Assembly: GCA_002791295.1 (NCBI GenBank)
Contig: PFWU01000001.1
Coordinates: 1 to 51,852 of the forward strand
DNA from: Candidatus Uhrbacteria bacterium CG_4_9_14_3_um_filter_50_9
GTDB lineage: Bacteria > Patescibacteriota > Patescibacteriia > UBA9934 > GWF2-40-263
Direction: 5' to 3'
Length of the DNA: 51,852 nt
Position numbers and translations under genes: made by a program. This document shows, in pieces, positions 2,791 through 48,196 of this stretch (position 1 is the first letter of the stretch; every line of letters starts with the position of its first letter). The notes under the pieces are model-generated. The model saw only the letters and a program-made list of their open reading frames with translations, did no database searches and was not told the DNA's origin.

Positions 2791-2819
2791 TTGACACTAC
2801 GCGTTCAATCCTCTAGGAT
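2791..2819 (+). promoter_or_regulatory. Cassette 1 promoter TTGACA-17-TAGGAT
   Basis: TTGACA 2791-2796, 17-nt spacer, TAGGAT 2814-2819. Confidence 0.6.
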
Positions 2820-2848
2820 CAGGAGCTCGCAACCCTTTGGAGGAAGGC

Positions 2849-3421
2849 GTGAAACAACAGGAACTGTTCAGTGCTCTCGAATGCATCTGGTCCTTCGTCG
2901 ACGACAAAAACGGCAATGGATGGGGTGAAGACGAACAGAATGCCATCTCTGTCATTCGTGCACAGATGGAAGGACTACCTGATTCGTCCATTGAAGCCAA
3001 TTACGAACTTGAACTGAAGCGACCTGGCGACAAGATCACTGGACATGCTCCGAACATTGGCCAGGTTACGATCCGCGATCGAGACAAGATATTGAAGAAA
3101 CGTTCGGAAGGAGAAGCGCAGGGAAGTGTCTACGAGGCCATTGGTCATTGGCGTGTCAGCCGACATGAAATGACCGTTGTGCGTTTCAGGCACTTCTGGT
3201 CAGGTGGCACTTCACGTGGGAATAAACAGCCCATGGGGTTGTTTATCAAATTCTATTCGAATGAGTCCGAGTGGCCCATCACGCTCTACCGTGATGTCGC
3301 TCTGAGACTCCCTGGCTTTCGCGTAAGTACTCAGGTGCCCATCTGGACATCTGCCTCGTTTGCCTGGTACGAGCGCATCATGATCTGGCTCTGGAACCGG
3401 ACCAACATACACCAGTCATAA
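2849..3421 (+). CDS. GC-rich cassette 1: hypothetical protein (190 aa), no recognisable motif
   Basis: GTG 2849 lies 4 nt after GGAGGA 2839-2844 (ORF track starts at TTG 2837). Own promoter and terminator. GC-rich, with spurious antisense ORFs piled on it. Confidence 0.6.
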   Translation: MKQQELFSALECIWSFVDDKNGNGWGEDEQNAISVIRAQMEGLPDSSIEANYELELKRPGDKITGHAPNIGQVTIRDRDKILKKRSEGEAQGSVYEAIGHWRVSRHEMTVVRFRHFWSGGTSRGNKQPMGLFIKFYSNESEWPITLYRDVALRLPGFRVSTQVPIWTSASFAWYERIMIWLWNRTNIHQS

Positions 3422-3446
3422 AGCATCCATACGGGATGCTTTTCTC
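3422..3446 (+). terminator. Cassette 1 terminator
   Basis: AGCATCC-atacg-GGATGCT then TTTCTC, starting right after the stop codon. Confidence 0.65.
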
Positions 3447-3462
3447 ATTTCTACAGCCCAAC

Positions 3463-4443
3463 CTACTCGACTGATGTTTTGTGTATTTGAGTGACTTCGT
3501 AGCCAGAGAAGCCTTCTGCTAAATTTGTTGGGCTCAGCCCCTTAAGACTCCCCTCTGCAAGTGGTGTGAGTTTAATTTCTAGGATCAGCGGGTTGTCTCT
3601 ATTAGCGAGAATAGTGTAGGACGCAAAACTATTTTTTGCTTCGATGGTTTGTACCGTGGTGCGCACATCATCAACCATGAGTGTGTACTGACCAAAGTCA
3701 CCACTTGCTTCGATTTGTGTGAGGTCTTTCTCCTCCTCTAAAACTTCTTCTTCATCCGTGGGTTCTGTTTCATCCCCTCCCCCTGTCAGAGGAGCAATAA
3801 ATGCGTTTATGGCATCAAGGTAACCCTGTGCATCGTCAGAAACATTCTCGAGCGTTGACAATGATTCATCAAATAATCCAAGGCTCACATGTGTTTTCCT
3901 GGTGTTCACAAGCTCATCATACTGCTCAACGGAAAACCAAATGAGAGATGAATCTTCCACAATCCCCCCATCTCCCTCTGTCCACAGCTCAGGAATGGTC
4001 ACCACATGCGCATCTGCCAGTGACTCGGACTGAATCGATCCACGGATAACACGTTCTTCGTAACGAGGCTCAGGTGCCTCGGGAATTTCGACCCCAATGG
4101 GCGTCTCTGCATACTCAGCCTCGTACGCTTCTCGTGCGGCAATAGATTCCTCAGTCTCTACATCTGTCGTGATCGTCCACTCAAGACCAACCGAGACGTT
4201 TGGCATAAACGATGTCACGGAAAGCACGCGCTCATCCGCTTCCCCACCGAGCCAGTTCACCAATTGTCCTCCTACACCCAAGACCGTTGGCCTCAGAACA
4301 ATCTCATTGTAAACAGAAAGAGAAAGCGATGCGGCCGCTTCCTCTACCGATAACGTTGAGACCTCCACGGTTTGACAACCCACCCCAACGAGGAGTAACC
4401 CCGCTAAAAAAATGAGTAATGATTGGCTCAATCGTCTTGTCAT
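3463..4443 (-). CDS. Acidic secreted protein or lipoprotein, function unknown
   Basis: Start taken at MTRRLSQSLLIFLAGLLLVGVGCQ (signal peptide with a lipobox-like VGC). The ORF track extends to 4473. Confidence 0.6.
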   Translation of the reverse strand: MTRRLSQSLLIFLAGLLLVGVGCQTVEVSTLSVEEAAASLSLSVYNEIVLRPTVLGVGGQLVNWLGGEADERVLSVTSFMPNVSVGLEWTITTDVETEESIAAREAYEAEYAETPIGVEIPEAPEPRYEERVIRGSIQSESLADAHVVTIPELWTEGDGGIVEDSSLIWFSVEQYDELVNTRKTHVSLGLFDESLSTLENVSDDAQGYLDAINAFIAPLTGGGDETEPTDEEEVLEEEKDLTQIEASGDFGQYTLMVDDVRTTVQTIEAKNSFASYTILANRDNPLILEIKLTPLAEGSLKGLSPTNLAEGFSGYEVTQIHKTSVE

Positions 4444-4466
4444 AAATGTATTTAGAAAGACTGAGG

Positions 4467-4520
4467 AAAACAACTTTGAGTCGGCTCAGTGAGAAACGGT
4501 CGATCTCATAAGTTCGTTTG
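4467..4520 (-). repeat. Copy 1 of a ~55-nt conserved structured intergenic element
   Basis: Minus-sense CAAACGAACTTATGAGATCGACCGTTTCTCACTGAGCCGACTCAAAGTTGTTTT. About 44 of ~54 positions are identical to copy 2, and the differences fall in the predicted loops. Confidence 0.7.
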
Positions 4521-4545
4521 CCGAAGTTCTTTCGATCACCAGAGA

Positions 4546-4809
4546 CTATGAAAGTTTTTCTCCTGCTGCCCACTTCTGTAATGTTTCCTCTGATGTTGCG
4601 CCACAGATCCATTCACCGGACTCATCGTTGAGGAAAAATGGCACCCCTCCGCACTTTCCTCCATCAGCGGTCTCTAGCTGTTTTGCGTTCACGTCATTGT
4701 GCCAGGTTTCTAGTTTTTCAATCTTTTTTCCTTCCTCGATTATTTTATCCACAAGTGGCATCATGTCGTGACAATGTGGACACTCCTCACCGTAGTAAAA
4801 ATACAGCAT
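4546..4809 (-). CDS. Thioredoxin-fold small redox protein (glutaredoxin/NrdH-like)
   Basis: 87 aa with a CPHC active-site motif near the N-terminus (MLYFYYGEECPHCHDM). Confidence 0.7.
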   Translation of the reverse strand: MLYFYYGEECPHCHDMMPLVDKIIEEGKKIEKLETWHNDVNAKQLETADGGKCGGVPFFLNDESGEWICGATSEETLQKWAAGEKLS

Positions 4810-5429: not shown

Positions 5430-5452
5430 ACACCCGCTCAGCGGGTGTTTTT
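5430..5452 (+). terminator. Terminator of gene 4845-5426
   Basis: ACACCCGC-tca-GCGGGTGT then TTTT. Confidence 0.65.
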
Positions 5453-5479
5453 GACGCTCATCGTTTCTTCTGTTAAGTT
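5451..5479 (+). promoter_or_regulatory. Cassette 2 promoter TTGACG-17-TAAGTT
   Basis: TTGACG 5451-5456 (shares Ts with the upstream terminator T-tract), TAAGTT 5474-5479. Confidence 0.6.
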
Positions 5480-5498
5480 CAACGTCTGGAGGTTCCTA

Positions 5499-6392
5499 GT
5501 GCACATTCACGTCACACCAAAGCTCGAGGACGCCATCGTCCTTCTCGAAGGCACGTCGTCGGACTGTCTGATCTCACTCGTCCCTGAGGACGAACTCATG
5601 CGCCGGGCCGCAAGGATCACCGCAGGTGCCTTCGACTTCGACGGCACCCTGACCACCGGCAGCCAATGGCGTGCCATCGATGATCTCATGCCAGAAGTGC
5701 TCAGAGAGCTGGGCAGTCAGAACCGTGACTGGTACTGGTCCCACTTGCACAAGATCGGTAACCTGCCCGCAAGCGTGCTGGATCCCGATTGGTTCCATTC
5801 GGATCTGCACGAAGGCAACCAGAAGGTTGCCGAAGGAGCCTGGATCGCCGAGACGATCTCGCTCTACCGGCAGGCCGGCCTGACCAGAAGGGACATCGAG
5901 GATGTCTGGTTGGCACTTCCACAGCGCGAAGGAGCCTGCGATCTCCTGGAGCTCGTCGATCCACGGGTCGTCATCAGCTTCGGTGTTGAGCAGGTCATCC
6001 TCTCCTGGCTCCAGAATCTGCAGGTCGTGGACACGGCCGTGGCAGCCTTGCGACTGAAGTTCAATGAGGAGGGTGTCGTCTCCGGCTGCCACATCAACCT
6101 CGTGGTCAGTGAGACCAAGCAATTCGCTGCCGATCGCTTTCGTCAGATCACTGGTGTAGCAGAGGACCAACTCCTCGTGGTCGGTGACTCGGTCGTGGAC
6201 GTGCACATGATGCACCCGAGAGGATTCAACATTCTCATCGTGCCGAGGGCAGAGGCAGACAAGAAACTTGCAGGCTTCCGCACCAACGGCATCGGGGTCA
6301 TGTGGGATCGCCTCACAGCCATCCTCGTCTCGGACAGTCTCCAGCCGCTCGTGGAACTCATCGAGCGTGCCCGAGCCACACACGCAACGTAA
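5499..6392 (+). CDS. GC-rich cassette 2: HAD-superfamily phosphatase-like protein
   Basis: GTG 5499 lies 6 nt after GGAGG 5488-5492. HAD motif I FDFDGTLT and motif IV-like VVGDSVVD. The ORF track starts upstream at 5445, inside the promoter. Confidence 0.7.
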   Translation: MHIHVTPKLEDAIVLLEGTSSDCLISLVPEDELMRRAARITAGAFDFDGTLTTGSQWRAIDDLMPEVLRELGSQNRDWYWSHLHKIGNLPASVLDPDWFHSDLHEGNQKVAEGAWIAETISLYRQAGLTRRDIEDVWLALPQREGACDLLELVDPRVVISFGVEQVILSWLQNLQVVDTAVAALRLKFNEEGVVSGCHINLVVSETKQFAADRFRQITGVAEDQLLVVGDSVVDVHMMHPRGFNILIVPRAEADKKLAGFRTNGIGVMWDRLTAILVSDSLQPLVELIERARATHAT

Positions 6393-6418
6393 AAACCCGC
6401 GAAACGCGCGGGTTTTCT
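6393..6418 (+). terminator. Cassette 2 terminator
   Basis: AAACCCGCG-aaacg-CGCGGGTTT then TCT. Confidence 0.7.
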
Positions 6419-6442
6419 GATTGTCCACACTTTGATTTGACT

Positions 6443-9681: not shown

Positions 9682-9683
9682 GC

Positions 9684-13555: not shown

Positions 13556-13577
13556 GAATTTACAAAAAAAGTATACC

Positions 13578-13600
13578 AAAAAACTGGGTAAGAACCCAGT
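13578..13600 (-). terminator. secF terminator
   Basis: Minus sense ACTGGGT-tctt-ACCCAGT then TTTTTGG. Confidence 0.7.
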
Positions 13601-16622: not shown

Positions 16623-16651
16623 TTGACAGATCCCCGAGACAGATGTGAGAT
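16623..16651 (+). promoter_or_regulatory. Cassette 3 promoter TTGACA-17-TGAGAT
   Basis: TTGACA 16623-16628, TGAGAT 16646-16651. Confidence 0.55.
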
Positions 16652-16675
16652 GGGTTTCTTCCCGAAGGAGCACAG

Positions 16676-17962
16676 ATGACAACTTTTCTGGCAGATGCGT
16701 GGAGATACAACCTTTACGCTCCAGATCACGTCATGCAGCAGCTCCCAAGGGAGCTGACCGAACAACAGTCGATCTCCCCTCTGATCACCCTGTTGCATTC
16801 AGGAGGAGGTAAGGCTCTTGGCCTTGAATTCTGCGACAGGATCGCCTCCAAGAGCAGGCACATCTGCGTCCCTCCTTGGATGCACATCTCTGTGGCAGAT
16901 CAACGACACGGTGACACAGAGCGCATCAAAACGTGGTGTGCGCAGTATGGAAACAAGGTGAAGGTTCGGAGTTCAACCCTCAACGAAGATTGGCTGAGTG
17001 GTCAAAGCGGTGTACACGGTTCACGTACCGTCGAAACGCCTGACAAGATTCTCTCGCATGCGCGGGAAATCTCACGACGACGGTTCCCAGTTGTTGTGCA
17101 GCAATTCTCGGAAGGTATCGGGATCGTCGTAGACATTGTTTGGAGTCCCATCCTCAATCGTCACGTGATTCGCCTGTCCACGGGGAGATCGAGTAAGCAA
17201 CCCGACGGCACGACCTGGTTCACCTCCGCCACATGGGATCACGAGGGAAGACATGAGGTGTATGATCCAGAGACAGGACTTCCACTCCTTGATCCCTGTC
17301 ATGGCCAGCTGTTTGAAGGAAGTTGCATACAGCTTCCCCTTGGAGAACTGGCACAGGAACTCTGGGGAGCCGTCAACGCCTGTGGCATCCGCTTCGGGAT
17401 CCAGCTCGAGATCATTATCCACCCTGAGCTGCCAAATACCTGGTGGCTCGTGCAGGTTCGCCCCTCCCCTGATCGTGTTCGCCTGCACGGCCTCAACGTC
17501 AAAAGCCTCAATGAACCCCTCCTGACAACTCCGGCTGTCAGCTGTGCCTTCGCACATGTAGGTCTAGGCGTGTTGATTGATACGCGCAGACGAACCGAAC
17601 TTCTCATAGCGGGCACGGACGCTCCATCTACGTCCAACCCGCTCCTAAGCCAGCTGTTCCATACATCGTCTATCGCCGTCTGGGAACAAGACCCACATGA
17701 GGACTTCGGCCTGTGCCAGCTTGATACGGCCCATAAGCATGGGGCGCTGGTCCAAGTCACCAAACGCGTTATCACGGTCAGCACTTCACACGGTCGCATT
17801 AACTATCGACTTGAAGCGGAACAAGAGTCCTTGGTCACTCGTGCGGGAATCATTGCGGTCACAAATGAAGTGCACGACCTACTCGTAGCTGAACTTCGAC
17901 AGCGCACACGCAATATAGGGGCGATCTCCGACGGCATCGTTGGACAGGTTGCCTTTATCTAA
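16676..17962 (+). CDS. GC-rich cassette 3: PPDK_N / PEP-utilising-enzyme-type ATP-grasp protein with an unknown C-terminal half
   Basis: KVKVRSSTLNEDWLSGQSGVHGS resembles VRSSAxxEDxxxxSFAGQ; WWLVQVRP resembles the LQ(A/S)RP strand. AGGAG 16666-16670 precedes ATG 16676. Confidence 0.65.
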   Translation: MTTFLADAWRYNLYAPDHVMQQLPRELTEQQSISPLITLLHSGGGKALGLEFCDRIASKSRHICVPPWMHISVADQRHGDTERIKTWCAQYGNKVKVRSSTLNEDWLSGQSGVHGSRTVETPDKILSHAREISRRRFPVVVQQFSEGIGIVVDIVWSPILNRHVIRLSTGRSSKQPDGTTWFTSATWDHEGRHEVYDPETGLPLLDPCHGQLFEGSCIQLPLGELAQELWGAVNACGIRFGIQLEIIIHPELPNTWWLVQVRPSPDRVRLHGLNVKSLNEPLLTTPAVSCAFAHVGLGVLIDTRRRTELLIAGTDAPSTSNPLLSQLFHTSSIAVWEQDPHEDFGLCQLDTAHKHGALVQVTKRVITVSTSHGRINYRLEAEQESLVTRAGIIAVTNEVHDLLVAELRQRTRNIGAISDGIVGQVAFI

Positions 17963-17985
17963 ACCCCTTATGCAAGGGGTTTTCT
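17963..17985 (+). terminator. Cassette 3 terminator
   Basis: ACCCCTT-atgc-AAGGGGT then TTTCT. Confidence 0.7.
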
Positions 17986-17990
17986 GATAC

Positions 17991-21720: not shown

Positions 21721-21798
21721 CAGACGTTTCATGCTGAGAGGAACGTGCCATAGGGGTACGTTTATTCTTGCATGAGAGTCACTTCCAAGGAGAGGTCT

Positions 21799-22539
21799 AT
21801 GACTTCAATCGCATGGCTCGTTGCTGGTGGCCTTCTCACCGGCGCCATGTACTTCACCGCTTCCAAAGCCAGCTCTGGCAAGAATACGTGGAGTGACCGG
21901 GACGTCGTGAGTTTTGTGCCTTTGGTCCTGATCTGGATCATCAGTACAATCTGGCACGGAATCTCAACGCACTCCTGGGCTATGCTCTTCGCCCAGATCC
22001 TCACGTTGCTCGGGACGCTCGTGGTCCTCACAACGGTTTCGAAAGGGGTCCTGGAAAAGCTGTACTGCCATCTTCAGGGACTGAAGTACAGCGACCAGGC
22101 TGTGCTCAAGCAGTACAAGGACATCAACCGACTGCTCCCCAGGCACAACCCCACCCGGGCACAAGTCCACAAGGTGGTTACCGTCACCCTTCCGGATCTT
22201 GAACAGCGAATCAAGCTCGTAGACGGCCGAATCGACCGCATCAGCAAGATCATCCAATCAACTGCCCCCGGAATTCACGCAGATCGTCAGTTGCGCGCAC
22301 GCGGGTCACTGAGAGGGATCAGAGCGGAACTCCAAAACCGGCTGATGGAGTGCCTGGGCTTCCTAGGTACGGTGGAGGCACTGCTCCTGTCTGCGGTCGA
22401 TGGCGACCTGCCCGACGTTTCCGAAGACTTCGAACGTCTGATGCAGTCCATGGAGGCTGATCGGGCCCAGAAGCAGGAAGCACTGCAGGAGGTCTCGAGT
22501 CTCGACAGGACGCAACTGCGTGCCGCAGAGCACGCCTAA
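21799..22539 (+). CDS. GC-rich cassette 4: 3-TM membrane protein with a helical/coiled-coil cytoplasmic domain
   Basis: ATG 21799 lies 3 nt after AAGGAGAGG 21787-21795. Hydrophobic segments IAWLVAGGLLTGAMYF, FVPLVLIWIISTIW and MLFAQILTLLGTLVVLT, then heptad-like helices. Confidence 0.55.
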   Translation: MTSIAWLVAGGLLTGAMYFTASKASSGKNTWSDRDVVSFVPLVLIWIISTIWHGISTHSWAMLFAQILTLLGTLVVLTTVSKGVLEKLYCHLQGLKYSDQAVLKQYKDINRLLPRHNPTRAQVHKVVTVTLPDLEQRIKLVDGRIDRISKIIQSTAPGIHADRQLRARGSLRGIRAELQNRLMECLGFLGTVEALLLSAVDGDLPDVSEDFERLMQSMEADRAQKQEALQEVSSLDRTQLRAAEHA

Positions 22540-22566
22540 CCAGCCACAACGCAGGCTGGAAACACG

Positions 22567-22600
22567 AACGCACGACTCGAGAGGTCGTGCGTTTCAAATT
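22567..22600 (+). terminator. Cassette 4 terminator (shared gap with convergent hpf)
   Basis: AACGCACGAC-tcgagag-GTCGTGCGTT then TCAAATTC. A smaller hairpin CCAGCC/GGCTGG lies at 22540-22559. Confidence 0.6.
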
Positions 22601-25335: not shown

Positions 25336-25340
25336 GCAAT

Positions 25341-25366
25341 CGAAAAACGCTGGGGTTCCAGCGTTT
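25341..25366 (-). terminator. Cassette 5 terminator
   Basis: Minus sense AAACGCTGG-aacc-CCAGCGTTT then TTCG, immediately upstream of the murC promoter. Confidence 0.7.
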
Positions 25367-25373
25367 GCGTTCG

Positions 25374-26618
25374 TCAGAATCGTTCGGTCCAGTCGACCCA
25401 GCACATCACGTGCGAGCCGTGGATCGCATTGTAGGCCACAGACCCGTCGGGAGTCCTGTGAAGGTTCCATGCGTGAGGAACCCAATCGTGAGGTCGCTGA
25501 CCGACAAAGGGCGTATCAAACTGCCCGTTGTACAAGATGATGGCGTCAATCGACCCCTGTGACCCCACGAGGAGATCACGGACGTGCTCACCTCTTGGAA
25601 TAACCCTGTGTGAGTTTGGGGTGAGCACCACCTCTTGACCGTCTTCCTCGTGGATGACGGCTGCAAAGGTCTGACCGTTATCGGACCAGTACAGGCCACC
25701 CTGCTCCATGGTGAAGCTCCCCTCGTACACCAGCTCCATGTTCAAGTAGAGCTGACGCTGCCAACCGGTGCGCCTACGCACACGTGAGAGGAAGGCGATC
25801 GAGTTCCCTCGAGGACCACTCCAGGCCATCTCGATGAGACCCTCGACCTCTGTTTCACTGTTCCCGATGAGTGATCCGAACTCACGCAGGAACGAATGTT
25901 CCTGACCACGGACGGCGAGGAAGAGTCGGTCACCCCACACAAGGAGCTGGACAGGAACCTCACCCGCGCCACACGGCGCATTGGTGAACGATTCCATCTG
26001 ACCGTGAGTGAAACGGTAGGTGTAGAGGAACGGATGATCTGGGTACTGCTCGAGGATGAGCACGGACCCGTCATGAGTGACCGTCACTTTGGCGCTTGCC
26101 TCCAAGGGAAGCAGGCCTTGTTCGGTTACGAGAAGTTGTTTGAGGTCCTGCTGACCCACGAGCACCATTCGGTCGCCACTCGGAGACATCGCTGTGAGGC
26201 GGTCGAGGTTGACGAGCTTGAATGTCTGGTAAGGACTCAGGTGCCAAACACCTGCCTGTCGATCCCCTTTCACGCGCCCATAGACGAGCACGGAGTCCTG
26301 GCGGACTCGGAGGATCTGTGGATGGAACACATTGCCGCACAGGTCCGTAGACTCGAACGGAGGGCCCAGCTCACCGAGGTCTGTGTGGTGTGCGAGGATC
26401 AATCCGTGAGCGTCTGGCTGGAGGATTACGGCCTCCAAGCCACGACGGCTGACCGTGAGTTGACTGCTGCTGATCAAGCTGGTCACCTGATCGGTGTCCA
26501 ACGATTCTGGCATTGGCAGCACAAAGTGTGCCTCTCCCCGCATGAACGGCTGATCTATCCTGATCGGCGCGTAGCGGGACCCGGTAGCAAGGTACCGGGA
26601 AGGTACCACCGGATACAT
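25374..26618 (-). CDS. GC-rich cassette 5: repeat-rich all-beta protein (possibly TolB/PD40-like propeller), function unknown
   Basis: Recurrent strand-turn motifs (SPSGDRMVLVG, HDGSVLILEQ, WGDRLFLAVRG, PRGNSIAFLS, DNGQTFAAVIH, TPDGSVAYNAI). AGGAG lies 7 nt before ATG 26618. Confidence 0.6.
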   Translation of the reverse strand: MYPVVPSRYLATGSRYAPIRIDQPFMRGEAHFVLPMPESLDTDQVTSLISSSQLTVSRRGLEAVILQPDAHGLILAHHTDLGELGPPFESTDLCGNVFHPQILRVRQDSVLVYGRVKGDRQAGVWHLSPYQTFKLVNLDRLTAMSPSGDRMVLVGQQDLKQLLVTEQGLLPLEASAKVTVTHDGSVLILEQYPDHPFLYTYRFTHGQMESFTNAPCGAGEVPVQLLVWGDRLFLAVRGQEHSFLREFGSLIGNSETEVEGLIEMAWSGPRGNSIAFLSRVRRRTGWQRQLYLNMELVYEGSFTMEQGGLYWSDNGQTFAAVIHEEDGQEVVLTPNSHRVIPRGEHVRDLLVGSQGSIDAIILYNGQFDTPFVGQRPHDWVPHAWNLHRTPDGSVAYNAIHGSHVMCWVDWTERF

Positions 26619-26679
26619 GGTGACTCTCCTTGGTTAGCAAGCGGAACGCAACCTGTGGATGCAGGCAGGCGGTCATCTC

Positions 26680-26708
26680 AACCTAGTGCTATTTCCGCTT
26701 ATTGTCAA
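26680..26708 (-). promoter_or_regulatory. Cassette 5 promoter TTGACA-17-TAGGTT
   Basis: rc of 26703-26708 = TTGACA; rc of 26680-26685 = TAGGTT; 17-nt spacer. Confidence 0.6.
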
Positions 26709-28726: not shown

Positions 28727-28755
28727 CGGACAAAAAGACTATCATGCGTTAGATT
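28727..28755 (+). promoter_or_regulatory. Cassette 6 promoter CGGACA-17-TAGATT
   Basis: CGGACA 28727-28732 (4/6 match to TTGACA), TAGATT 28750-28755. Confidence 0.45.
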
Positions 28756-28787
28756 ATGACGCCAACCACAAACAGAGAGGAGGTGGC

Positions 28788-29804
28788 ATGAACCCGCAAG
28801 AAGACACACGTCGAGAGGCATCCAGGAAGCTGATCGAGGCGATCGGCATCGAGGCATTCCTCGAGATGTTCGGACCCCTCATCGGTCGGACCATGAAGGA
28901 CTGCGCCGAGCGCGTGATCGCTTCGTTCCCCAAGTACCAGGACAGCAACGAATTCGAGATCAAGCGCATCAGGGACAACGGAAGCCCCGACTGGGTGGGC
29001 AAGGCCGACAAGCGGGCACAGCAGGTCTACGAGAAGCTGATCCGTGAGGACTGGGTCCACACCTTCGGCTTCGGCATGATCGGTGAGGAGGACGACCTCA
29101 GAATCCCCTGTGTTATCCCCGGCCACGATGTCTACTTCACCTGCGACCCGTACGACGGAACCGGTGCGATGAAGCGTGGCCAGTCACACGGCGTGGGAAC
29201 CATGGTCGCACTCGTGTGCGACGGGAAGGTTGTTGCAGCGCTCGTTGGCGACACCAACAGCCAGGAGCTCTACTACTTCCGGCCTGGCTCAGACAAGACC
29301 CACCGGATCAAGCTGCGTTCGCAGACATCGAATGAGCTCGTCATCGACGATCAGCTCCCCCTGGCCGAGCAGGTCTTACTGCTCAGGTCCATGCCCTTCG
29401 AGCTCAGCCGTGTCATCCAGGCCATGGTCGTCGATCAGGGCAAGGAGCTCTTCAAGAAGGCCGTCGCAACCAACGGTTCGATCGGCGTCTCCATGGCTCA
29501 GCTCTGGAAGGGCGAGGTCGGCGGCGCAGTCATGGCACTCGGGAACTCGACCCCCTGGGACACGAGCCCGGTCATCGGCCTGAGTCTGAGACTCGGCTTC
29601 GACTTCTACTACGTGCAGAGTCCGACCAAGTATTCCTTCCACCATGCACAACAAGGTGAACCCATGGGGAGGCTGGTCCGCTACAGTCCAGTTCCACCCA
29701 AGGAGACGGTGAACGAACCTCACGAGATCTTCGTGGTCCACTCTTCAAGACGCGAGGAGCTGGTCGCCTGGGGCGAGCGGCGCAACATCCGCGTCACCAT
29801 CTAG
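28788..29804 (+). CDS. GC-rich cassette 6: inositol-monophosphatase/FBPase/CysQ-fold phosphatase-like protein
   Basis: MIGEEDD (metal-binding EE), CDPYDGTGAM (DPxDGT motif), PWDTSPVIG (WD motif). AGGAGG 28778-28783 lies 4 nt before ATG 28788. Confidence 0.65.
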   Translation: MNPQEDTRREASRKLIEAIGIEAFLEMFGPLIGRTMKDCAERVIASFPKYQDSNEFEIKRIRDNGSPDWVGKADKRAQQVYEKLIREDWVHTFGFGMIGEEDDLRIPCVIPGHDVYFTCDPYDGTGAMKRGQSHGVGTMVALVCDGKVVAALVGDTNSQELYYFRPGSDKTHRIKLRSQTSNELVIDDQLPLAEQVLLLRSMPFELSRVIQAMVVDQGKELFKKAVATNGSIGVSMAQLWKGEVGGAVMALGNSTPWDTSPVIGLSLRLGFDFYYVQSPTKYSFHHAQQGEPMGRLVRYSPVPPKETVNEPHEIFVVHSSRREELVAWGERRNIRVTI

Positions 29805-29827
29805 CCGAGCAACGTCGCTCGGTTTTC
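29805..29827 (+). terminator. Cassette 6 terminator
   Basis: CCGAGC-aacgtc-GCTCGG then TTTTC. It abuts the stop codon of the convergent gene at 29828. Confidence 0.65.
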
Positions 29828-30889
29828 TTATTCAAATTGACTCATCTCTACGAGGTGCGGAATCACATAGTTCACAAAATGATTTCCATTTTCCACAACG
29901 GGCACTGTCTCTTCGTTGTAGACCGTGTTCCAATCTCCTGCGTTTACACGGAACCAGGTGACAAATGAATTGCGGACGGACTCGAGCATTTCAACCGTGT
30001 GCCCATACGTGGGTTGGATATGGTCTTTCTCTTGCTGAATACGCCAATAGTACCCAAGCCCATCAACCCCTTTCATAAACTCAGCGGCTTCACGCTCTGC
30101 CCAGTATGTGTCATCTGCACAATCATGGTCGGCGGGACTCACCTCTTCCCTATCCTCACCCATTACACGTCCTAACTTACAACCAATCGTCGTAAAAAAT
30201 CGACTTGAGGGCCCCTCCCAATCTGAGAGGAATTTAATACCGAGCTCTGGATAACGAGCAACAACACCTGCGGCACCTGTGACTCCATACGAAAAACTTG
30301 CTAGGCCAATATTGTATGGATTCACAACTGTGAACTTTTTTGCCGCTTGAACAATGGCAGCAATACCATCTTGATCAGCAAAACCATAGAAATCCTGTTC
30401 ACCCTCACTTTCACCAACACCGAGTGTTTGAAAGGCAACAACGACAAACCCTTCTGCTGCGAGCCATTCCATCTCGTTTACGTCATCTTTCGGAGCGACG
30501 GTAAATCCAGATCCATCACCAATGCCACCTGAGAGCAGGACAACCATGGGCAGAGAGCTGTACCCATCAGGAATGGCATACCAAACCTTTTGAACATGAA
30601 ACGTGTTCGGATTTACGATCTCAGCCTCATAGGTCTGAATGGTCGTGCCACGGACATCAGTTGTTCTAAAGGATTCTCCTGACGTGATCTCTGCATCCAG
30701 AATACGATTCCACACTGCATCTTCATTCCCCACAGTCTCTTCGTCTAATTCCACAAAAGGATCATCCAGTCCTTGTACTTCACGTAACAACTCCTCAATG
30801 TAAACCTGTTCTGTTTTGGAATAATTCCACGCCCTCAAACCACCAAAGGCCAGAGCTGTGAGGACGACAAAAAGTACGGCACGTTTCAT
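29828..30889 (-). CDS. Secreted protein, possibly an alpha/beta-hydrolase
   Basis: Signal peptide MKRAVLFVVLTALAFGG (start taken at ATG 30889). GLASFSYGVTG could be a nucleophile elbow variant. Functional call is weak. Confidence 0.5.
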   Translation of the reverse strand: MKRAVLFVVLTALAFGGLRAWNYSKTEQVYIEELLREVQGLDDPFVELDEETVGNEDAVWNRILDAEITSGESFRTTDVRGTTIQTYEAEIVNPNTFHVQKVWYAIPDGYSSLPMVVLLSGGIGDGSGFTVAPKDDVNEMEWLAAEGFVVVAFQTLGVGESEGEQDFYGFADQDGIAAIVQAAKKFTVVNPYNIGLASFSYGVTGAAGVVARYPELGIKFLSDWEGPSSRFFTTIGCKLGRVMGEDREEVSPADHDCADDTYWAEREAAEFMKGVDGLGYYWRIQQEKDHIQPTYGHTVEMLESVRNSFVTWFRVNAGDWNTVYNEETVPVVENGNHFVNYVIPHLVEMSQFE

Positions 30890-31115: not shown

Positions 31116-31955
31116 ATGGCAAAAATTCTCGATGGAAAATTACTAGCTCTCACGATTCGCGGTAAGATTCGCGATCGTGTCAGCACCCTCCCTTCAGAGC
31201 CAGGCCTGGCGGTGTTGTTGGTTGGAAATGACCCGGCATCCCACACCTACGTTGACTTGAAAAAAGTTGCGTGCGAAGAAGCGGGCATTCATTTTGAATT
31301 GTTTCTTTATGATGCGAGCGTGGGTGAACAAGAGTTGATTGATAAAATCCATGAGCTCAATCTACGAACAAACATCCATGGAATTCTCGTACAGCTTCCC
31401 CTCCCCACTCAGGACGCACATGTCATCATTCCTGAAATCGATCCATTAAAAGATGTGGATGGTTTCCACGCTGAAAATCTCAAGCGGCTGCGTGAAGGAA
31501 AACCTTGCATTGCCTCTGCAGTTGCGCTCGGGGTCATGAAGCTTATTCGTGCAGCTGTCGGTGACGGACCTCTCCCACCCACGGCCACGATTGTGTCTTC
31601 ACCTTTTTTTGCCGTCCCACTCGAAACACTCCTGAGAGAACAACGGGTGGAAGTCACAGTGACTCAGGCTGAAGACCCTGAGCTGGTGGACAAAACAAAA
31701 AAAGCGGACATCTTAGTTGTTGCAGAAGGGATCCCCAACCTCATCCGTGCCACACATGTGAAACCTGGCGCTATCGTTATCGATGTTGGAACGACCAAGG
31801 TGAACGAGGTATTAAAGGGTGATGTGGATTTTGATGCTGTCGAACCCATCGCAAGCGCTATCACTCCTGTCCCAGGGGGTGTCGGGCCTATGACCGTCGC
31901 CATGCTGCTTGTGAATATTCTCAAAGCCTACCAACTTCAGAATATTGACACATAA
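31116..31955 (+). CDS. folD: Bifunctional methylenetetrahydrofolate dehydrogenase/cyclohydrolase
   Basis: Family-typical full-length sequence (ILDGK, VGNDPAS..YV..K, GILVQLPLP, PVPGGVGPMT). Confidence 0.93.
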   Translation: MAKILDGKLLALTIRGKIRDRVSTLPSEPGLAVLLVGNDPASHTYVDLKKVACEEAGIHFELFLYDASVGEQELIDKIHELNLRTNIHGILVQLPLPTQDAHVIIPEIDPLKDVDGFHAENLKRLREGKPCIASAVALGVMKLIRAAVGDGPLPPTATIVSSPFFAVPLETLLREQRVEVTVTQAEDPELVDKTKKADILVVAEGIPNLIRATHVKPGAIVIDVGTTKVNEVLKGDVDFDAVEPIASAITPVPGGVGPMTVAMLLVNILKAYQLQNIDT

Positions 31956-31973
31956 GCCTGTTTCGTGTAGATT
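31945..31973 (+). promoter_or_regulatory. Cassette 7 promoter TTGACA-17-TAGATT
   Basis: TTGACA 31945-31950 lies inside the last codons of folD (stop 31953-31955). TAGATT 31968-31973. Confidence 0.55.
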
Positions 31974-32026
31974 CATGCGTTCGTGAGGTAAACCTCGCGT
32001 ACGTCTCATCTACACGGAGGCGAGCA

Positions 32027-32344
32027 ATGATCGCACTGCAGAAGGAGGGCTTCAAGGCCCGTGTGTTCGTCACCACCGACGAAAGGGCGGTGGGAGTCGT
32101 CCTGTACGAGGACGACAAAAGCGTGGGTGGCCTCCGCATCGAGACCACCGACAGCGAATCGGCGCTCCGCCAGGTCGAGCACTGGCTTTCCAACTACGAG
32201 TTGGAACTCGAGGATGAGCTGGAGACGGCTGTCTTGGATGAGCTCGAGACGCTCGAGCGAGTCCGCACCGAGGGCGCTGATGCGGTCGGCTGGCTCGGGA
32301 GCCAGAGCGACCGACGACTGCCCGCGAGCAGCCTCATCGCCTGA
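32027..32344 (+). CDS. GC-rich cassette 7: small acidic protein (105 aa), unknown
   Basis: GGAGG 32016-32020 lies 6 nt before ATG 32027. D/E-rich helix NYELELEDELETAVLDELETLERV. Own hairpin terminator. Confidence 0.5.
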   Translation: MIALQKEGFKARVFVTTDERAVGVVLYEDDKSVGGLRIETTDSESALRQVEHWLSNYELELEDELETAVLDELETLERVRTEGADAVGWLGSQSDRRLPASSLIA

Positions 32345-32364
32345 CCGGCCAACATCTCTCAACG

Positions 32365-32397
32365 GCCCGTGGACACTGATCCACGGGCTTTCAATTT
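32365..32397 (+). terminator. Cassette 7 terminator
   Basis: GCCCGTGGA-cactga-TCCACGGGC then TTTCAATTT. Confidence 0.65.
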
Positions 32398-32425
32398 GAA
32401 AACCACTGGTGATTTACCAGTGGTT
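32392..32425 (-). terminator. Cassette 8 terminator
   Basis: Minus sense AACCACTGG-taaatca-CCAGTGGTT then TTCAAATT. The TAA stop sits in the loop. Confidence 0.65.
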
Positions 32426-33310
32426 GCGCGGGTGACCTGGGCTTCTTTCGTAGAACGGAAGTACCTGATCGAGTCCCGTCATCACCTCAGCGTAGGGTGT
32501 GCGGGTGCGAAGGTAGTTGACCTCGTAGGCGGGCGTGTATTCGTTGACCATCAGCCCCACCTGTCCACCAAGTGCAAGCGGAAGCGCCAGGTCGAGCTCG
32601 AAGATATCGCCAACGACTGTCACCTGGGCCCACGTGATGCCATGCTGATTCCTCAACTTGTTGAGGACCTCAAAGTAGTGGGGGCGCCTGAGCTGCACTG
32701 GTCTGTTGAGACCTGGGATGCGAAGTTCGAACGGTTCCACATCCAATCCACCAGGCAGGTACTTCTTCGCACGCCCATGAACACGAGGCAGCCACCAGTT
32801 GATGAAGGCGGCTCCATAGAGGGTGTCGCATTCGTCTGCCAACATCATCCCCATGCGACGGATCTTCTCCTGGACCGGCTCCGTGTGCGAGTTGGTGACG
32901 ATGTAGCAGTCGAGCTCCTGACGCATAATTGCGACCAAGAGATCCTTGGCTCCGTTCGCGAAATGCATCGTTGTGCGCTGATAGTTCTGACTGTAGAGCG
33001 TCCCTGTCAGAAGCTCCCTGCGTGCGTCAGGATCTTGGTAGATGCCCGCTTCATCGAAGATCATCTCCGCAATCGGCTTGATCCGGAGGTAGGGGTCGAC
33101 TGTGGCAGGAGCCATGATGACTCCATCGACCTTCCATCCGTGCGATCCAGGATCTGCGGCGATCAAAGCTGCGATCTGCTCAGCACGCTGCTGGACGCGA
33201 TCAAGCGTCCATCCTGTGAGTCGGGCGATGTCCTGAAGGAATCCCACCGTAAACGGTGTACCCTCCTGTTCCACATCCGTCAGCGTTCCGTCGAAATCTA
33301 GCACGAGCAT
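32414..33310 (-). CDS. GC-rich cassette 8: HAD-superfamily phosphatase-like protein
   Basis: Start MLVLDFDGTLTD (HAD motif I) at ATG 33310, preceded by AGGAGAGG. Also IVTNS (motif II) and VVGDIFELD (motif IV). The ORF track extends to 33340. Confidence 0.7.
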   Translation of the reverse strand: MLVLDFDGTLTDVEQEGTPFTVGFLQDIARLTGWTLDRVQQRAEQIAALIAADPGSHGWKVDGVIMAPATVDPYLRIKPIAEMIFDEAGIYQDPDARRELLTGTLYSQNYQRTTMHFANGAKDLLVAIMRQELDCYIVTNSHTEPVQEKIRRMGMMLADECDTLYGAAFINWWLPRVHGRAKKYLPGGLDVEPFELRIPGLNRPVQLRRPHYFEVLNKLRNQHGITWAQVTVVGDIFELDLALPLALGGQVGLMVNEYTPAYEVNYLRTRTPYAEVMTGLDQVLPFYERSPGHPRNHW

Positions 33311-33341
33311 GACCTCTCCTCTTTTAGATAGAGCGACCACA

Positions 33342-33370
33342 AATATAATGGGGCCAGCCTACTCTGTCAA
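33342..33370 (-). promoter_or_regulatory. Cassette 8 promoter TTGACA-17-TATATT
   Basis: rc of 33365-33370 = TTGACA; rc of 33342-33347 = TATATT. Confidence 0.6.
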
Positions 33371-37748: not shown

Positions 37749-37775
37749 GGGGGATCGTCTAGTTTGAAACTCTCT

Positions 37776-38402: not shown

Positions 38403-38448
38403 TACATTTGCATGGATGAGAGTCAGCCCCCCATAACTCACCTAGCCT

Positions 38449-39111: not shown

Positions 39112-39204
39112 CGAGAAGTAAATTAACTTCTCCCTTCGTTCCACCCATATCGCCATCACAACATCGTATACCCAGACACATTACATAGACGAAACCCATC
39201 CCCT

Positions 39205-46329: not shown

Positions 46330-46387
46330 CACAAATGAAACACCCGCCGACTGCGAGAGCGGGGGTGCTCATCGCCGTCCGGCGGGT
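46330..46387 (-). terminator. Cassette 9 proximal hairpin
   Basis: 46342-46351 pairs with 46377-46387 (10 bp, one bulge) around a 25-nt loop. Followed in minus sense by GTTTCATTTG. Confidence 0.45.
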
Positions 46388-46392
46388 TCGTG

Positions 46393-46599
46393 TTACAAAC
46401 AACATCCTGGGGAGTTCCAGGTGCTGCCGCAACCTGGGCACCCCTTGGACTCGGGCAGCCGCTCCTCCCTTCTCCGATGGACCGTCGTCCCATCAGAGAG
46501 GGTCTGCCAGGTTTCGGTCACCTTGTACGACCGCGCACCGCCCTCATATTTGTACCAGACGCTCGTACTCGCCGTCTGGACATCATTTCCGTCCGGCAT
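46393..46599 (-). CDS. GC-rich cassette 9: 68-aa protein with a Cys-rich C-terminus (GCPGCGSTWNSPGCCL)
   Basis: AGGAGG (rc of 46605-46610) lies 5 nt before ATG 46599. MPDGNDVQTASTSVWYKYEGGARSYKVTETWQTLSDGTTVHRRREERLPESKGCPGCGSTWNSPGCCL. The ORF track extends it to 46710, through the promoter. Confidence 0.5.
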   Translation of the reverse strand: MPDGNDVQTASTSVWYKYEGGARSYKVTETWQTLSDGTTVHRRREERLPESKGCPGCGSTWNSPGCCL

Positions 46600-46622
46600 C
46601 ACTGCCTCCTTTAGTGAGGACA

Positions 46623-46652
46623 AATTTAAACACTTTTTTTCAAAATTGTCAA
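46623..46652 (-). promoter_or_regulatory. Cassette 9 promoter TTGACA-17/18-TTAAAT/TAAATT
   Basis: rc of 46647-46652 = TTGACA. The -10 is read as TTAAAT (17-nt spacer) or TAAATT (18-nt spacer). Confidence 0.55.
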
Positions 46653-46690
46653 CCCTGTTACTTCCCCGTGTTACTCGCCGACGTTTTAAA

Positions 46691-46727
46691 TAAAGCAAAA
46701 ACAGGTCCATTTTTAAACCTGTTTTTT
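46691..46727 (-). terminator. tgt terminator
   Basis: Minus sense AAAAACAGGT-10 nt loop-ACCTGTTTTT. The 5' arm overlaps the last tgt codons. Confidence 0.6.
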
Positions 46728-47831
46728 GATTGATTCTCGCAGCTCTTTCATGAGCCTGAGATAAAATTTCAAGTTATGCATGGTTGAGAGTCGCAGGGCT
46801 AGAATTTCATTCACTGAAAAAAGATGTCTCAGATATGCCCTGGAATAACTCTGACACAACTCACAGTCACAGTAGCTGTCAACCGGTTTCTGCTCAAGTT
46901 TATGCGTCTCATTGGTTGCGATGTATCTGTTATAAAACATCCCGTCAGGATTCATGCCGCAATACTTCTTCCACTCAACCTCTGATGGATCCTGGTTCCA
47001 CACAAAGAGAGTCCCGTGTCGTGCGTTGCGTGTCGGAAGCACGCAGTCAAACAGATCAACCCCCATGTGCACATACGTCACGATTTCCTCCGGCATACCG
47101 CCACCCATGAAGTAGCGTGGCTTGTCCTCTGGCAAGATCTTGCAAATCGCCTCAACAATTCGATACGCATCCTCACGCTTCTCCCCCACCGAGAGCCCAC
47201 CGATTGCATACCCATCAAATCCAATCTCCATAAGCCCACGAGCTGATCGCTCACGCAGATCTTCATGTGTGCCTCCTTGAACAATTCCAAAAAGTTTCTG
47301 ATTCGGATTCACAGATGCCTTGCACCGCTGTGCCCAACGGAGAGATCGCTCCATGGCTTCTTCGTATCGTTCGCGAGTTGAATCGCCGGCGGCCACGTCA
47401 TCAAACTGCATCACGATGTCCGCACCAATGGCCGCCTGCATTTCCATAGACTTCTCTGGTGTGAGTTCAATCCGTGCTCCGTCGATGTGCGATTGAAACG
47501 TCACGCCTTCCTCTGTGGTCTTATTCATTTTTGAAAGACTAAACACCTGGTAGCCGCCACTGTCCGTTAAGATTGGCCCCTTCCAGTTCATAAGCTTATG
47601 AAGTCCACCAAGGGTTTTCATGTCATCAAGCCCTGGGCGCAAGAGCAGGTGGTAGGTATTCGACAACAGTATTTGTGCACCGAGTGCCTTCATATCCACA
47701 CTCGACAAGGTCTTGACCGCACCCTTGGTCGCAATCGGCATGAACAACGGCGTTTGGATATCACCATGAGGAAGTGCGATCGTCCCCTGACGTGCGTTTT
47801 CTTTGATTGAATGTGGGGTGAAGATTGACAT
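46713..47831 (-). CDS. tgt: Queuine tRNA-ribosyltransferase
   Basis: LTDSGGYQVF, GGLSVGE, zinc site CDCELCQSYSRAYLRHL. Confidence 0.93.
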   Translation of the reverse strand: MSIFTPHSIKENARQGTIALPHGDIQTPLFMPIATKGAVKTLSSVDMKALGAQILLSNTYHLLLRPGLDDMKTLGGLHKLMNWKGPILTDSGGYQVFSLSKMNKTTEEGVTFQSHIDGARIELTPEKSMEMQAAIGADIVMQFDDVAAGDSTRERYEEAMERSLRWAQRCKASVNPNQKLFGIVQGGTHEDLRERSARGLMEIGFDGYAIGGLSVGEKREDAYRIVEAICKILPEDKPRYFMGGGMPEEIVTYVHMGVDLFDCVLPTRNARHGTLFVWNQDPSEVEWKKYCGMNPDGMFYNRYIATNETHKLEQKPVDSYCDCELCQSYSRAYLRHLFSVNEILALRLSTMHNLKFYLRLMKELRESIKKQV

Positions 47832-47853
47832 GAGTGGTTTAATTTGCTAGCTT
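47825..47853 (+). promoter_or_regulatory. Cassette 10 promoter TTGACA-17-TAGCTT
   Basis: TTGACA 47825-47830 overlaps the tgt start codon on the other strand. TAGCTT 47848-47853. Confidence 0.55.
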
Positions 47854-47871
47854 CACTCTTCTGGAGGAAGC

Positions 47872-48171
47872 ATGTTGAAACTGCATCTGCCCAACCGGCA
47901 GGAGATCGTCGATGTGGTCCTGCAAGAAGGCGACATCGTAGGGCTGGAGAATCCCCGGCAGCATGTCTGGCTACTTACGCTCCATGGTTCGCGCAGGGAG
48001 ACCATCACGCACTTCCTGTTCGAGGGAGGGGATGACAAGATGTTGCTCCGCTCTCGCACCCACGCACAGGCCGTCGTAGAGATCGAGGGGATCATCGGGC
48101 CCGAGTTCAGGCTCGGTGAGCCGAGGATCAATCCGAATGGACCCTGGTACTACCCAATCATCCGTCGTTAA
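47872..48171 (+). CDS. GC-rich cassette 10: hypothetical protein (99 aa)
   Basis: GGAGG 47863-47867 lies 4 nt before ATG 47872. Own promoter and terminator. No recognisable motif. Confidence 0.5.
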   Translation: MLKLHLPNRQEIVDVVLQEGDIVGLENPRQHVWLLTLHGSRRETITHFLFEGGDDKMLLRSRTHAQAVVEIEGIIGPEFRLGEPRINPNGPWYYPIIRR

Positions 48172-48196
48172 CAGCGCTACGCCGCGCTGTTTTCTT
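48171..48196 (+). terminator. Cassette 10 terminator
   Basis: ACAGCGC-tacgcc-GCGCTGT then TTTCTT. It abuts the dnaJ stop codon at 48195. Confidence 0.65.

Follow-up and report, generated by a model that had tools for sequence, protein, structure and literature searches.

What are ten GC-rich, self-contained genes doing among the housekeeping genes of a small bacterial genome, and does their composition mark them as foreign? The question is raised by a 51,852-nt stretch of DNA (hereafter, the window) from an uncultured, groundwater-type Candidatus Uhrbacteria, a member of the candidate phyla radiation (CPR; Patescibacteria). The window is a bacterial chromosome stretch of about 48% guanine plus cytosine (GC) with housekeeping genes, among which ten monocistronic, GC-rich open reading frames (ORFs) are scattered. 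An earlier note on this DNA had described the ten as compositionally foreign cassettes, each with its own promoter and terminator and comparable to the morons of phages, and had named an engineered or chimeric origin as an equally serious alternative. Here, these ten ORFs (hereafter, the units, each named after the lower coordinate of its coding sequence: 2849, 5499, 16676, 21799, 25374, 28788, 32027, 32414, 46393 and 47872) are compared with the 43 backbone ORFs of the window. Composition, promoter, Shine–Dalgarno (SD) sequence and terminator all divide the same two gene sets, and the conservation of the units in related genomes suggests that they may well be old residents of the lineage.

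The compositional contrast holds on formal testing. The GC content is 0.583 ± 0.033 in the ten ORFs and 0.481 ± 0.029 in the backbone (Mann–Whitney p = 2.1e-6), and the GC content at third codon positions (GC3) is 0.712 ± 0.080 and 0.498 ± 0.056, respectively (p = 1.7e-6). GC3 lies between 0.69 and 0.83 in eight of the ten, and the remaining two, 2849–3421 (0.576) and 16676–17962 (0.583), are mildly shifted, at merely about 1.5 standard deviations over the backbone. The hand counts of the earlier note (72 and 48 G+C in 120 nt) are exact, and the antisense and out-of-frame ORFs stacked on the units, which it had ascribed to composition, are reproduced from composition alone by a synonymous-shuffle simulation. 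The shift is confined to the coding sequence: the edges are sharp at both ends, no gradient extends into the neighbouring genes, and the intergenic GC content is 0.48 beside the units and 0.455 elsewhere. Three further features accompany it. One is the dinucleotide signature, for which the pooled units give a delta* of 110, as compared with 28 ± 8 for random backbone subsets; the main change is a drop of AA/TT from 1.18 to 0.85. Another is codon choice: NNC is strongly preferred over NNT (TTC 0.82, ATC 0.83, TAC 0.83), and CTC is preferred over CTG, the latter in the same way as in the native backbone. The last is that codon positions 1 and 2 are shifted as well, with Lys at 0.058 in the backbone and 0.030 in the units, and Arg at 0.054 and 0.072. 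The atypical base composition and codon usage by which genomic islands are recognized are, thus, both present in the units.

The expression signals separate the two gene sets along the same line. When both strands of the window were searched for TTGACR-N16-18-TANNNT, 8 sites were found against 1.76 ± 1.30 expected, a number reached in 0 of 100 shuffles. Seven of the eight are located 17–62 nt upstream of unit starts, and the remaining one precedes rplU; among the 43 backbone genes, one has a consensus −35 promoter site. Of the other three units, 16676 has TTGACA-17-TGAGAT, 28788 has CGGACA-17-TAGATT, and 21799 has no convincing promoter. The idea that all ten form one regulon is supported by the shared promoter class but not by any further common element, since no shared upstream motif beyond the −35 element and the SD was found in the units.

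As the earlier note had stated, an AGGAG/GGAGG-type SD precedes all ten starts: a core of at least 5 nt is located 4–7 nt ahead of the start in each. The calculated duplex energy with the anti-SD averages −9.7 kcal/mol in the units (all ten at −7 or below), against −1.9 kcal/mol in the backbone, −3.85 when the best candidate start of each backbone gene is taken, and −2.8 at internal control positions (p = 1.6e-5); an anti-SD is assumed in these energies, none of the 177 loci collected containing a 16S 3′ end. AT-rich leaders without an SD are found in the genes for L21, SecA, SHMT, FolD and DnaJ in the window, and in those for S4, S11, S13 and rpoA, which lie on the same contig immediately upstream of it. 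About six backbone genes, including the permease gene at 33864, dnaB, the ABC exporter gene and the uracil-DNA glycosylase gene, may be exceptions with an SD. The dichotomy between strong-SD units and an SD-poor backbone recurs in relatives, and it is the one point that is new beyond the earlier observation.

A hairpin of −8 kcal/mol or stronger followed by a T-tail terminates nine of the ten units, as compared with 9 of the 43 backbone genes. The earlier claim of a terminator for all ten thus holds for nine in its strong form; the tenth, 32414, has only a short stem overlapping its stop codon, followed by a T-tail. Promoters and terminators of the units interlock with the ends of neighbouring genes. 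With a promoter in 8 or 9 and a terminator in 9 or 10 of the ten, the units are autonomous transcription units of the kind by which phage morons are defined, and the description of an autonomous promoter–SD–gene–terminator unit of deviant composition between backbone genes is supported for each gene.

Whether such units have recently been inserted can be judged from their positions in relatives. A SecA-anchored scan with one genome per species placed the organism in Candidatus Uhrbacteria, the closest genomes having 67–74% SecA identity, and the slots of eight units (all except 46393 and 47872) were compared with those of relatives, whose loci carry L numbers below. Orthologues in the same slot were found in other Uhrbacteria for seven of the ten (5499, 16676, 21799, 25374, 28788, 32027 and 32414), and these orthologues retain the TTGACA-type promoter, the SD and the terminator. 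The gene trees of 25374 and of MurC next to it agree in topology (5 taxa; a match expected by chance once in 15). The best matches beyond the strain have 43–62% identity, the upper value not being exceeded by any protein from elsewhere in a search of 5.8 billion. Between strains, 6 single-nucleotide differences were counted in 22.8 kb, of which 2 are within units, too few to be informative.

Signals of mobility are likewise scarce. The earlier note had seen no integrase, transposase or tRNA alongside the units, and this was borne out: Pfam scans of all window genes gave no integrase or transposase domain, and a search of the window gave no tRNA gene and no Rfam family. No flanking-repeat signal was noticed at the units, no formal repeat search having been made. 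None of the ten has a PHROG match, two scans revealed no relatives in viral contigs, and no defence-system signal was found for the units. They differ from integron cassettes, which usually lack a promoter, in that the window has no integrase domain (no search with attC models was made) and the units carry their own promoters, and the marks of recent transfer, namely absence from relatives, close donor homologues and tree incongruence, were not observed. The notion of foreign, recently inserted or moron-like units is, therefore, contradicted by syntenic orthologues for seven of the ten with signals kept, and by the lack of any phage, defence or mobility signal. The comparison with sister genomes that the earlier note had proposed gave a divided answer: relatives hold the same genes at the same sites, but with a cassette-like rather than backbone-like composition. 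The units are, accordingly, genes of the lineage, yet compositionally not ordinary ones.

The deviant composition persists in orthologues. When these were compared with their local backbone, GC3 was higher in the orthologue in 22 of 23 cases (+0.06 to +0.35), and the excess is seen with a backbone of 43% GC as well as in genomes of 55–56% GC (L108 and L177). Four-fold degenerate sites of conserved residues are at or near saturation (identity 0.27–0.37 observed, 0.25–0.34 expected), and the GC content at these sites (GC4) is 0.55–0.87 in both members of each orthologue pair, except for the orthologue of 5499 in L095 (GC4 0.46). No trend with apparent age is seen: the widest-spread family, the IMPase-like one, is the most deviant (GC3 0.82), and the orphan 2849 is the least (0.58). 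In 16 related loci, genes with both SD and promoter (n = 16) deviate in GC3 by +0.165 on average, and genes with neither (n = 201) by −0.008. In relatives, 10 of 14 high-GC3 genes have the SD, an enrichment over the 60 of 224 seen otherwise (p = 0.001), and 6 of the 14 have the promoter, against 9 of the 224 (p = 5e-5). The codon fractions of the units correlate at r = 0.94 with those of unit orthologues elsewhere, against r = 0.51 with their own backbone. The predicted mRNA folding energy is −39 kcal/mol per 120 nt in the units and −29 in the backbone. Seven of the ten units, against 13 of the 43 backbone genes, are on the lagging strand as deduced from GC skew (p = 0.03); strand bias as the cause of the GC shift was rejected, GC3 being equal between the strands.

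We favour, at an even balance of confidence, the reading that the units are accessory genes which are native to the lineage, specific to it and passed on vertically, and which form a conserved class with its own expression regime. The GC-rich composition would then not be a leftover of recent import; a class-specific GC equilibrium would be maintained by a force acting on these coding regions alone, the candidates being selection that acts on GC content or on the stability of the mRNA, and mutation or repair with a bias towards GC. Where normal initiation uses unstructured AT-rich leaders, GC-rich and more folded messages would rely on SD-led initiation, so that SD and GC-richness would occur together; a background for such a dependence has reportedly been established (Scharff et al. 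2011).

Several observations weigh against this reading. The units are patchily present among relatives: the slots for 2849, 5499 and 21799 are empty in some and filled in others, gain and loss being indistinguishable, and no orthologue was found for 2849, whose slot between Era and a 336-aa ORF is empty in L094, L096, L097 and L108. The nearest non-CPR relatives of the 32414 HAD are GC-rich bacteria, one of them (P0039) being encoded in a contig of 69% GC where its composition is native, so that an ancient transfer may have brought in one unit or more. When the sister species is compared, the synonymous-site identity is 0.27–0.35 for units and 0.44–0.45 for the flanking MurB and Ham1 genes, an excess of divergence that allele replacement would give as well and that keeps this explanation alive. 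The halved Lys, the raised Arg, the shift at positions 1 and 2 and the dinucleotide signature resemble the traces of a foreign origin or of mutation. The anti-SD motif is reported to be missing from part of the Parcubacteria (PMC9297842). The excess of mRNA structure is not significant under a dinucleotide-preserving synonymous shuffle (z −1.37 against −0.48, p = 0.067); that obtained with a simple codon shuffle (z −2.3) had largely gone under this control. As for the force behind the GC shift, a remnant of donor composition is conceivable beside selection on GC or on the stability of the mRNA and a local GC bias of mutation or repair.

Ancient transfer of whole expression units from GC-rich, SD-using bacteria, followed by vertical inheritance with the donor traits partly ameliorated or retained by mutual dependence, is a serious partial rival, above all for the 32414 HAD; taken for the units in general, we consider it rather doubtful. 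'Mainstream-bacterial' signals and GC-richness together would most simply indicate a common origin. Among the 677 members of the 32414 family, those with a named source come nearly all from GC-rich phyla, at 46–54% identity, and the closest match is in the 69% GC contig, with whose codon fractions those of the units correlate at r = 0.90. The delta* of 110 against a null of 28 agrees with such an origin, and the near-backbone composition of the 25374 orthologues in L013 and L090 would fit late amelioration; a rough decay estimate would leave a GC3 excess of +0.1 to +0.2 after about 0.5–1 substitution per site. Against this, the families of the IMPase-like 28788, 25374, 16676 and 21799 are small, no GC-rich home genome was seen for them, and their source-named matches are in CPR or unclassified bins, bar one Myxococcota bin (the matches of the 16676 family are without taxonomy). 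Even the GC-richest of the Uhrbacteria sampled have orthologues above their backbone, families that seem older are no less deviant, GC4 is high in both lineages despite saturated four-fold sites, and the preference for CTC over CTG is like that of the native backbone. Less probable still, in our judgement, is a scheme in which Uhrbacteria repeatedly exchange promoter–gene–terminator cassettes drawn from a mobile, GC-rich gene pool, one cassette replacing another at fixed intergenic positions. The filled and empty slots, the unrelated GC-rich ORFs with TTGACA promoters that occupy the same slots in L105, the codon 'dialect' common across genomes (r = 0.94), and the divergence of units above their flanks, in synonymous sites and protein alike, would all suit it. 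It is, however, opposed by the lack of integrase, transposase, tRNA, flanking-repeat, PHROG and viral-contig signals within the searches given above, by the absence of copies closer than 62% beyond the strain, by the congruence of the 25374 tree with that of MurC, by the missing GC3 gradient into flanking genes, and by the interlocking of promoters and terminators with neighbouring gene ends.

Two other explanations deserve hardly any credit. If the units were highly expressed native genes, translational selection for C-ending optimal codons would have raised their GC3, as their strong promoters and SDs, the large excess of NNC over NNT, the partial correlation of their codon shifts with those of DnaK (r = 0.38), and the occurrence of their promoter pattern in the backbone at rplU alone might suggest. 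This explanation is, however, already contradicted: the genes for S4, S11, S13 and rpoA of the same genome have a GC3 of 0.35–0.41, a shift in the opposite direction. The dnaK gene (50475–51806, cut by the window end) is the sole strongly codon-biased gene, with an effective number of codons (Nc) of 40.3 against 59.6 expected, yet its GC3 is 0.57 and its favoured codons differ from those of the units, with GCA, CCA, GAA and GGT preferred, along with ACC, AAC and CGC; translational selection, thus, exists in this small genome but does not raise GC3. The Nc of the units is no further below the GC3-only expectation than that of the backbone, their amino-acid composition is shifted too, and their codon usage is not like that of ribosomal-protein and chaperone genes. 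An engineered construct, or a chimera of assembly or binning, was suggested by the textbook-like parts (TTGACA-17-TAnnnT, AGGAGG, hairpin and T-tail), but this origin is refuted with a margin of doubt that is practically nil. The window DNA, all junctions included, is present with 99.93–100% identity in at least five independently made assemblies, for which the projects and the assemblers differed (ENA ERZ17912254 and ERZ22277115, JGI 3300003830/3300007985/3300007986, Logan SRR5487654, and one metagenome-assembled genome at NCBI), window proteins were found on up to 12 contigs, and other species carry divergent orthologues with the same architecture.

How do the units, read as a native class, compare with known systems? 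They resemble phage morons in being monocistronic, with their own promoter and intrinsic terminator, in lying between conserved genes without interrupting them, and in their deviant composition and presence or absence among related genomes. Unlike morons, they are set in chromosomal CPR housekeeping DNA (SecA, SecDF, MurB/C, SHMT, FolD, DnaB, RecR, ClpB, TGT, DnaJ/K) and have no relatives in phage families or viral contigs; seven of the ten are syntenic across species, one tree matches that of a neighbour, and the composition offset persists at saturated synonymous divergence. Another comparison is with compositionally atypical native genes: 'class III' genes are reportedly known in E. coli, and codon bias and base composition are said to be poor indicators of horizontal gene transfer (HGT) (Medigue et al. 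1991; Koski et al. 2001). The units share with such genes the status of a minority class whose codon usage and GC content are unlike the genome bulk and which includes many old residents, but they are GC-richer, not AT-richer, than the core, are tied one-to-one to transcription and translation signals, and have an offset that recurs in orthologues across genomes of differing backbone GC. SD-poor initiation occurs in some bacterial lineages, such as the Bacteroidota. The backbone here is like these in that its genes, including those for ribosomal proteins, have AT-rich leaders with anti-SD pairing at background, whereas the conserved minority with very strong SDs at canonical spacing, GC-richness, insulation by terminators and consensus −35 promoters has no counterpart there. 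To our knowledge, such a combination in an SD-poor lineage has not been reported, and no prior description of this gene-class pattern was found in the literature searched. The last comparison is with selection on GC or GC-biased gene conversion, both of which have reportedly been proposed in bacteria (Hildebrand et al. 2010; Raghavan et al. 2012; Lassalle et al. 2015). A lasting synonymous GC excess over the rest of the genome and fast sequence turnover are common to both cases, but the effects reported are genome-wide or regional and of a few percent, whereas here the excess is +0.1 to +0.35 in GC3, in single coding regions with sharp edges.

The structures of the individual units are as follows. 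The first (2791..3452, plus strand) has the promoter TTGACA-17-TAGGAT (2791–2819), the SD GGAGG, the coding sequence 2849–3421 for 190 aa without a known domain, and a hairpin followed by TTTTCTC. The second (5451..6420, plus strand), with TTGACG-17-TAAGTT (5451–5479), GGAGGT and a hairpin followed by TTTTCTG, encodes a HAD-IB-like phosphatase (5499–6392; GC3 0.742). Its syntenic orthologues, located between MnmA and a FecR-like gene, are in L095 (49% identity) and L108 (48%), and the slot is empty in L094, L096, L097 and L099. In the third (16623..17989, plus strand), the SD AAGGAG precedes a coding sequence for 428 aa (16676–17962), which belongs to an uncharacterized family of about 92 clusters and is followed by a hairpin and TTTTCTG; the syntenic orthologue in L014 (47% identity) has a GC3 of 0.642 against about 0.445 in the backbone, and the slot of L013 is occupied by a HAD-like gene at backbone composition. 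The fourth (21750..22600, plus strand) has the SD AAGGAG and two hairpins followed by TTTC, and encodes a membrane/coiled-coil-like protein of 246 aa (21799–22539; GC3 0.713) from a family of three proteins. Its sole relative is the syntenic orthologue between SecA and HPF in the sister organism L092 (43% identity by BLASTP, 42–47% in other alignments), with a GC3 of 0.581 against 0.42–0.53 in its flanks; the slot is empty in L014, L009, L089, L090 and L013. In the fifth (25338..26708, minus strand), TTGACA-17-TAGGTT (26708–26680), a 62-nt leader and AAGGAG precede a coding sequence (26618–25374; GC3 0.692) for a beta-rich protein of 414 aa without a known domain, followed by a hairpin and TTTTTCG, and syntenic orthologues between MurC and SHMT are found in L014, L013, L011/L090, L177, L009 and L012.

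The sixth unit (28727..29833, plus strand) carries the SD AGGAGG, an IMPase-fold phosphatase gene (28788–29804; GC3 0.817) and a hairpin followed by TTTTCTTA, a T-tail that includes the stop codon of the convergent gene 29828–30928. Its IMPase-like family has 34 proteins, whose source-named members are all from CPR or unclassified bins except P0028 (a Myxococcota bin). GC3 is above that of the flanks in all three syntenic orthologues (L091, 62%; L089, 52%; L090, 46%). Its promoter can be recognized by eye as one sequence shared by three genomes. The −35 and −10 elements are separated by the spacer AAAAGACTATCA (within 28727–28755), which is nearly invariant in the window, L091 and L089, where synonymous sites are saturated, and which may be an operator or a transcription-factor site. 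The seventh and eighth units are convergent. The former (31945..32399, plus strand) has TTGACA-17-TAGATT (31945–31973), which overlaps the 3′ end of folD, the SD GGAGG, a coding sequence for 105 aa (32027–32344; GC3 0.830), and a hairpin followed by CTTTCAATTT; its syntenic orthologue in L014 (32% identity, with TTGACG-17-TAGGTT) has a GC3 of 0.79 against 0.445, the homologue in L089 is not syntenic, and a single weak PADLOC match (E = 8e-4) was not used. The latter (32395..33370, minus strand) has TTGACA-17-TATATT (33370–33342), the SD AGGAG, a HAD hydrolase gene (33310–32414; GC3 0.689), and TTTTC behind the stem over its stop codon. Its syntenic orthologues, in the order DnaB, permease, small ORF and HAD, are in L093 (GC3 0.545 against 0.35–0.45) and L177 (0.882 against 0.60–0.69), and the Uhrbacteria sequences form a clade of 10 inside the 677-member family.

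The ninth unit (46332..46652, minus strand) has TTGACA-18-TAAATT (46652–46623), the SD AAGGAGG, a coding sequence for 68 aa (46599–46393; GC3 0.725), and a long-loop hairpin followed by GTTTCATTT. No homologues of its product were found, and with its Cys-rich C-terminal end, CPGCGSTWNSPGCCL, the product could be a metal-binding or modified mini-protein. The tenth (47825..48197, plus strand) has TTGACA-17-TAGCTT (47825–47853), whose −35 element overlaps the start of the opposite-strand tgt, the SD GGAGG, a coding sequence for 99 aa (47872–48171; GC3 0.750), and a hairpin followed by TTTTCTTA, a tail that includes the stop codon of dnaJ.

The product labels given earlier stand in part. The two HAD phosphatases and the IMPase-fold protein were confirmed weakly, whereas the PPDK_N ATP-grasp (16676) and the propeller-like protein (25374) have no match in Pfam, NCBIfam or PDB. 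Pfam gave nothing at E ≤ 5, nor for 32 members of the 16676 family; the motifs GGGKAxGL and VRSSxxxEDW may resemble PPDK_N, but the assignment is unconfirmed. PDB sequence and profile searches for 16676, 25374 and 32414 gave no match, single-sequence AlphaFold models were unusable (pLDDT 32 for 16676 and 39 for 25374), and no domain was detectable in the seven units other than 5499, 28788 and 32414. The recognizable products are, thus, small-molecule phosphatases, two HAD and one IMPase-fold, under these weak assignments. Further GC-rich units in relatives encode a CheY-like receiver and a NUDIX protein; together with these and the HAD-like gene of L013, a shared phosphoryl-transfer or nucleotide-housekeeping theme is possible.

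Other GC-shifted ORFs were noticed in relatives. The more distant L105 has two unrelated GC-rich ORFs in the slots beside mnmA and era (9507–9914 and 13199–13549), encoding a CheY-like receiver of 135 aa and a product of 116 aa; each has TTGACA-17-TAnnnT and an SD, and their GC3 is 0.78 and 0.70 against 0.43 in the backbone. In L009, an ORF for 286 aa (7682–8542; GC 0.667, GC3 0.89) lies in a Uhrbacteria contig of 51% GC and has no homologue in the window; it may represent a further gene of the GC-shifted class, or else one that is truly foreign.

The backbone comprises genes for a TrmA-like methyltransferase, Era, MnmA, an HD hydrolase, UppP/BacA and a TrwB-like ATPase with DUF8128; SecDF, SecA, HPF, MurB, MurC, SHMT, a Ham1-like NTPase, FolD, an amino-acid permease and DnaB; and YbaB, RecR, an ABC exporter, L21, a GT4 transferase, ClpB, TGT, DnaJ and DnaK. 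Three loci deserve mention beside it. The TrwB/VirD4-like coupling ATPase (717 aa) overlaps the DUF8128 protein (581 aa) by 4 nt (9684–13579); the pair is kept in L013, L014, L094, L097, L105 (with a tandem ATPase duplicate) and L108, and its neighbourhood has no further genes of type IV secretion. Between recR and the ABC exporter gene, a low-GC block (37764–39489; GC 0.39, GC3 0.32–0.37) carries a uracil-DNA glycosylase, an HD-domain protein and an ORF for 94 aa, the last at backbone composition. In L090, recR abuts the exporter gene, and an unrelated FGase gene occupies this place in L177; the block, quite unlike the units, has the appearance of AT-rich DNA that was truly inserted at a variable site. 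The SHMT of L177 (10565–11848) has 57% identity to that of the window, as compared with 77–82% in other relatives, with collinear neighbours; here, a xenologue has probably taken the place of the original housekeeping gene.

The GC-rich genes also pose a practical problem, in that gene callers get them wrong. In the annotation of ERZ22277115 (L007 and L174), whose DNA is the same as that of the window, an antisense ORF for 284 aa replaces the HAD gene 5499–6392, ORFs for 89 and 125 aa replace the IMPase-like gene 28788–29804, and the 428-aa gene 16676–17962 is given as 360 aa. Variable slots in L007, which these calls had seemed to indicate, were ruled out by alignment; the DNA being identical, the differences come only from the gene callers.

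The wider meaning depends on how far the division reaches. We tentatively propose, as a possibility that we hold to be short of probable, that two expression regimes exist in one Uhrbacteria genome and perhaps in the wider Parcubacteria: SD-independent, AT3-leaning, mostly operonic housekeeping genes on the one hand, and a conserved, SD-led, terminator-insulated accessory minority, actively kept GC-rich, with consensus −35 promoters on the other. For HGT detection by parametric methods, the ten genes are a counter-example, since they look foreign by every compositional test and are mostly old syntenic residents. In a CPR lineage in which the bulk of the genes is without an SD, the kind of promoter, the use of an SD, the insulation by terminators and the GC content of the coding sequence are coupled, and this coupling bears on how translation is started by the reduced CPR ribosomes. 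Two gene classes here live in the same cell under common replication and repair, with orthologues across genomes of 43–57% GC, and with polymorphism data from public metagenomes the effects on GC content of selection, of biased gene conversion and of a local bias in mutation could be told apart. If the two regimes are real, they would provide a natural experiment on GC maintenance at single-gene resolution, and translation of the accessory class could be conditional, being limited, for instance, to times at which the anti-SD is exposed.

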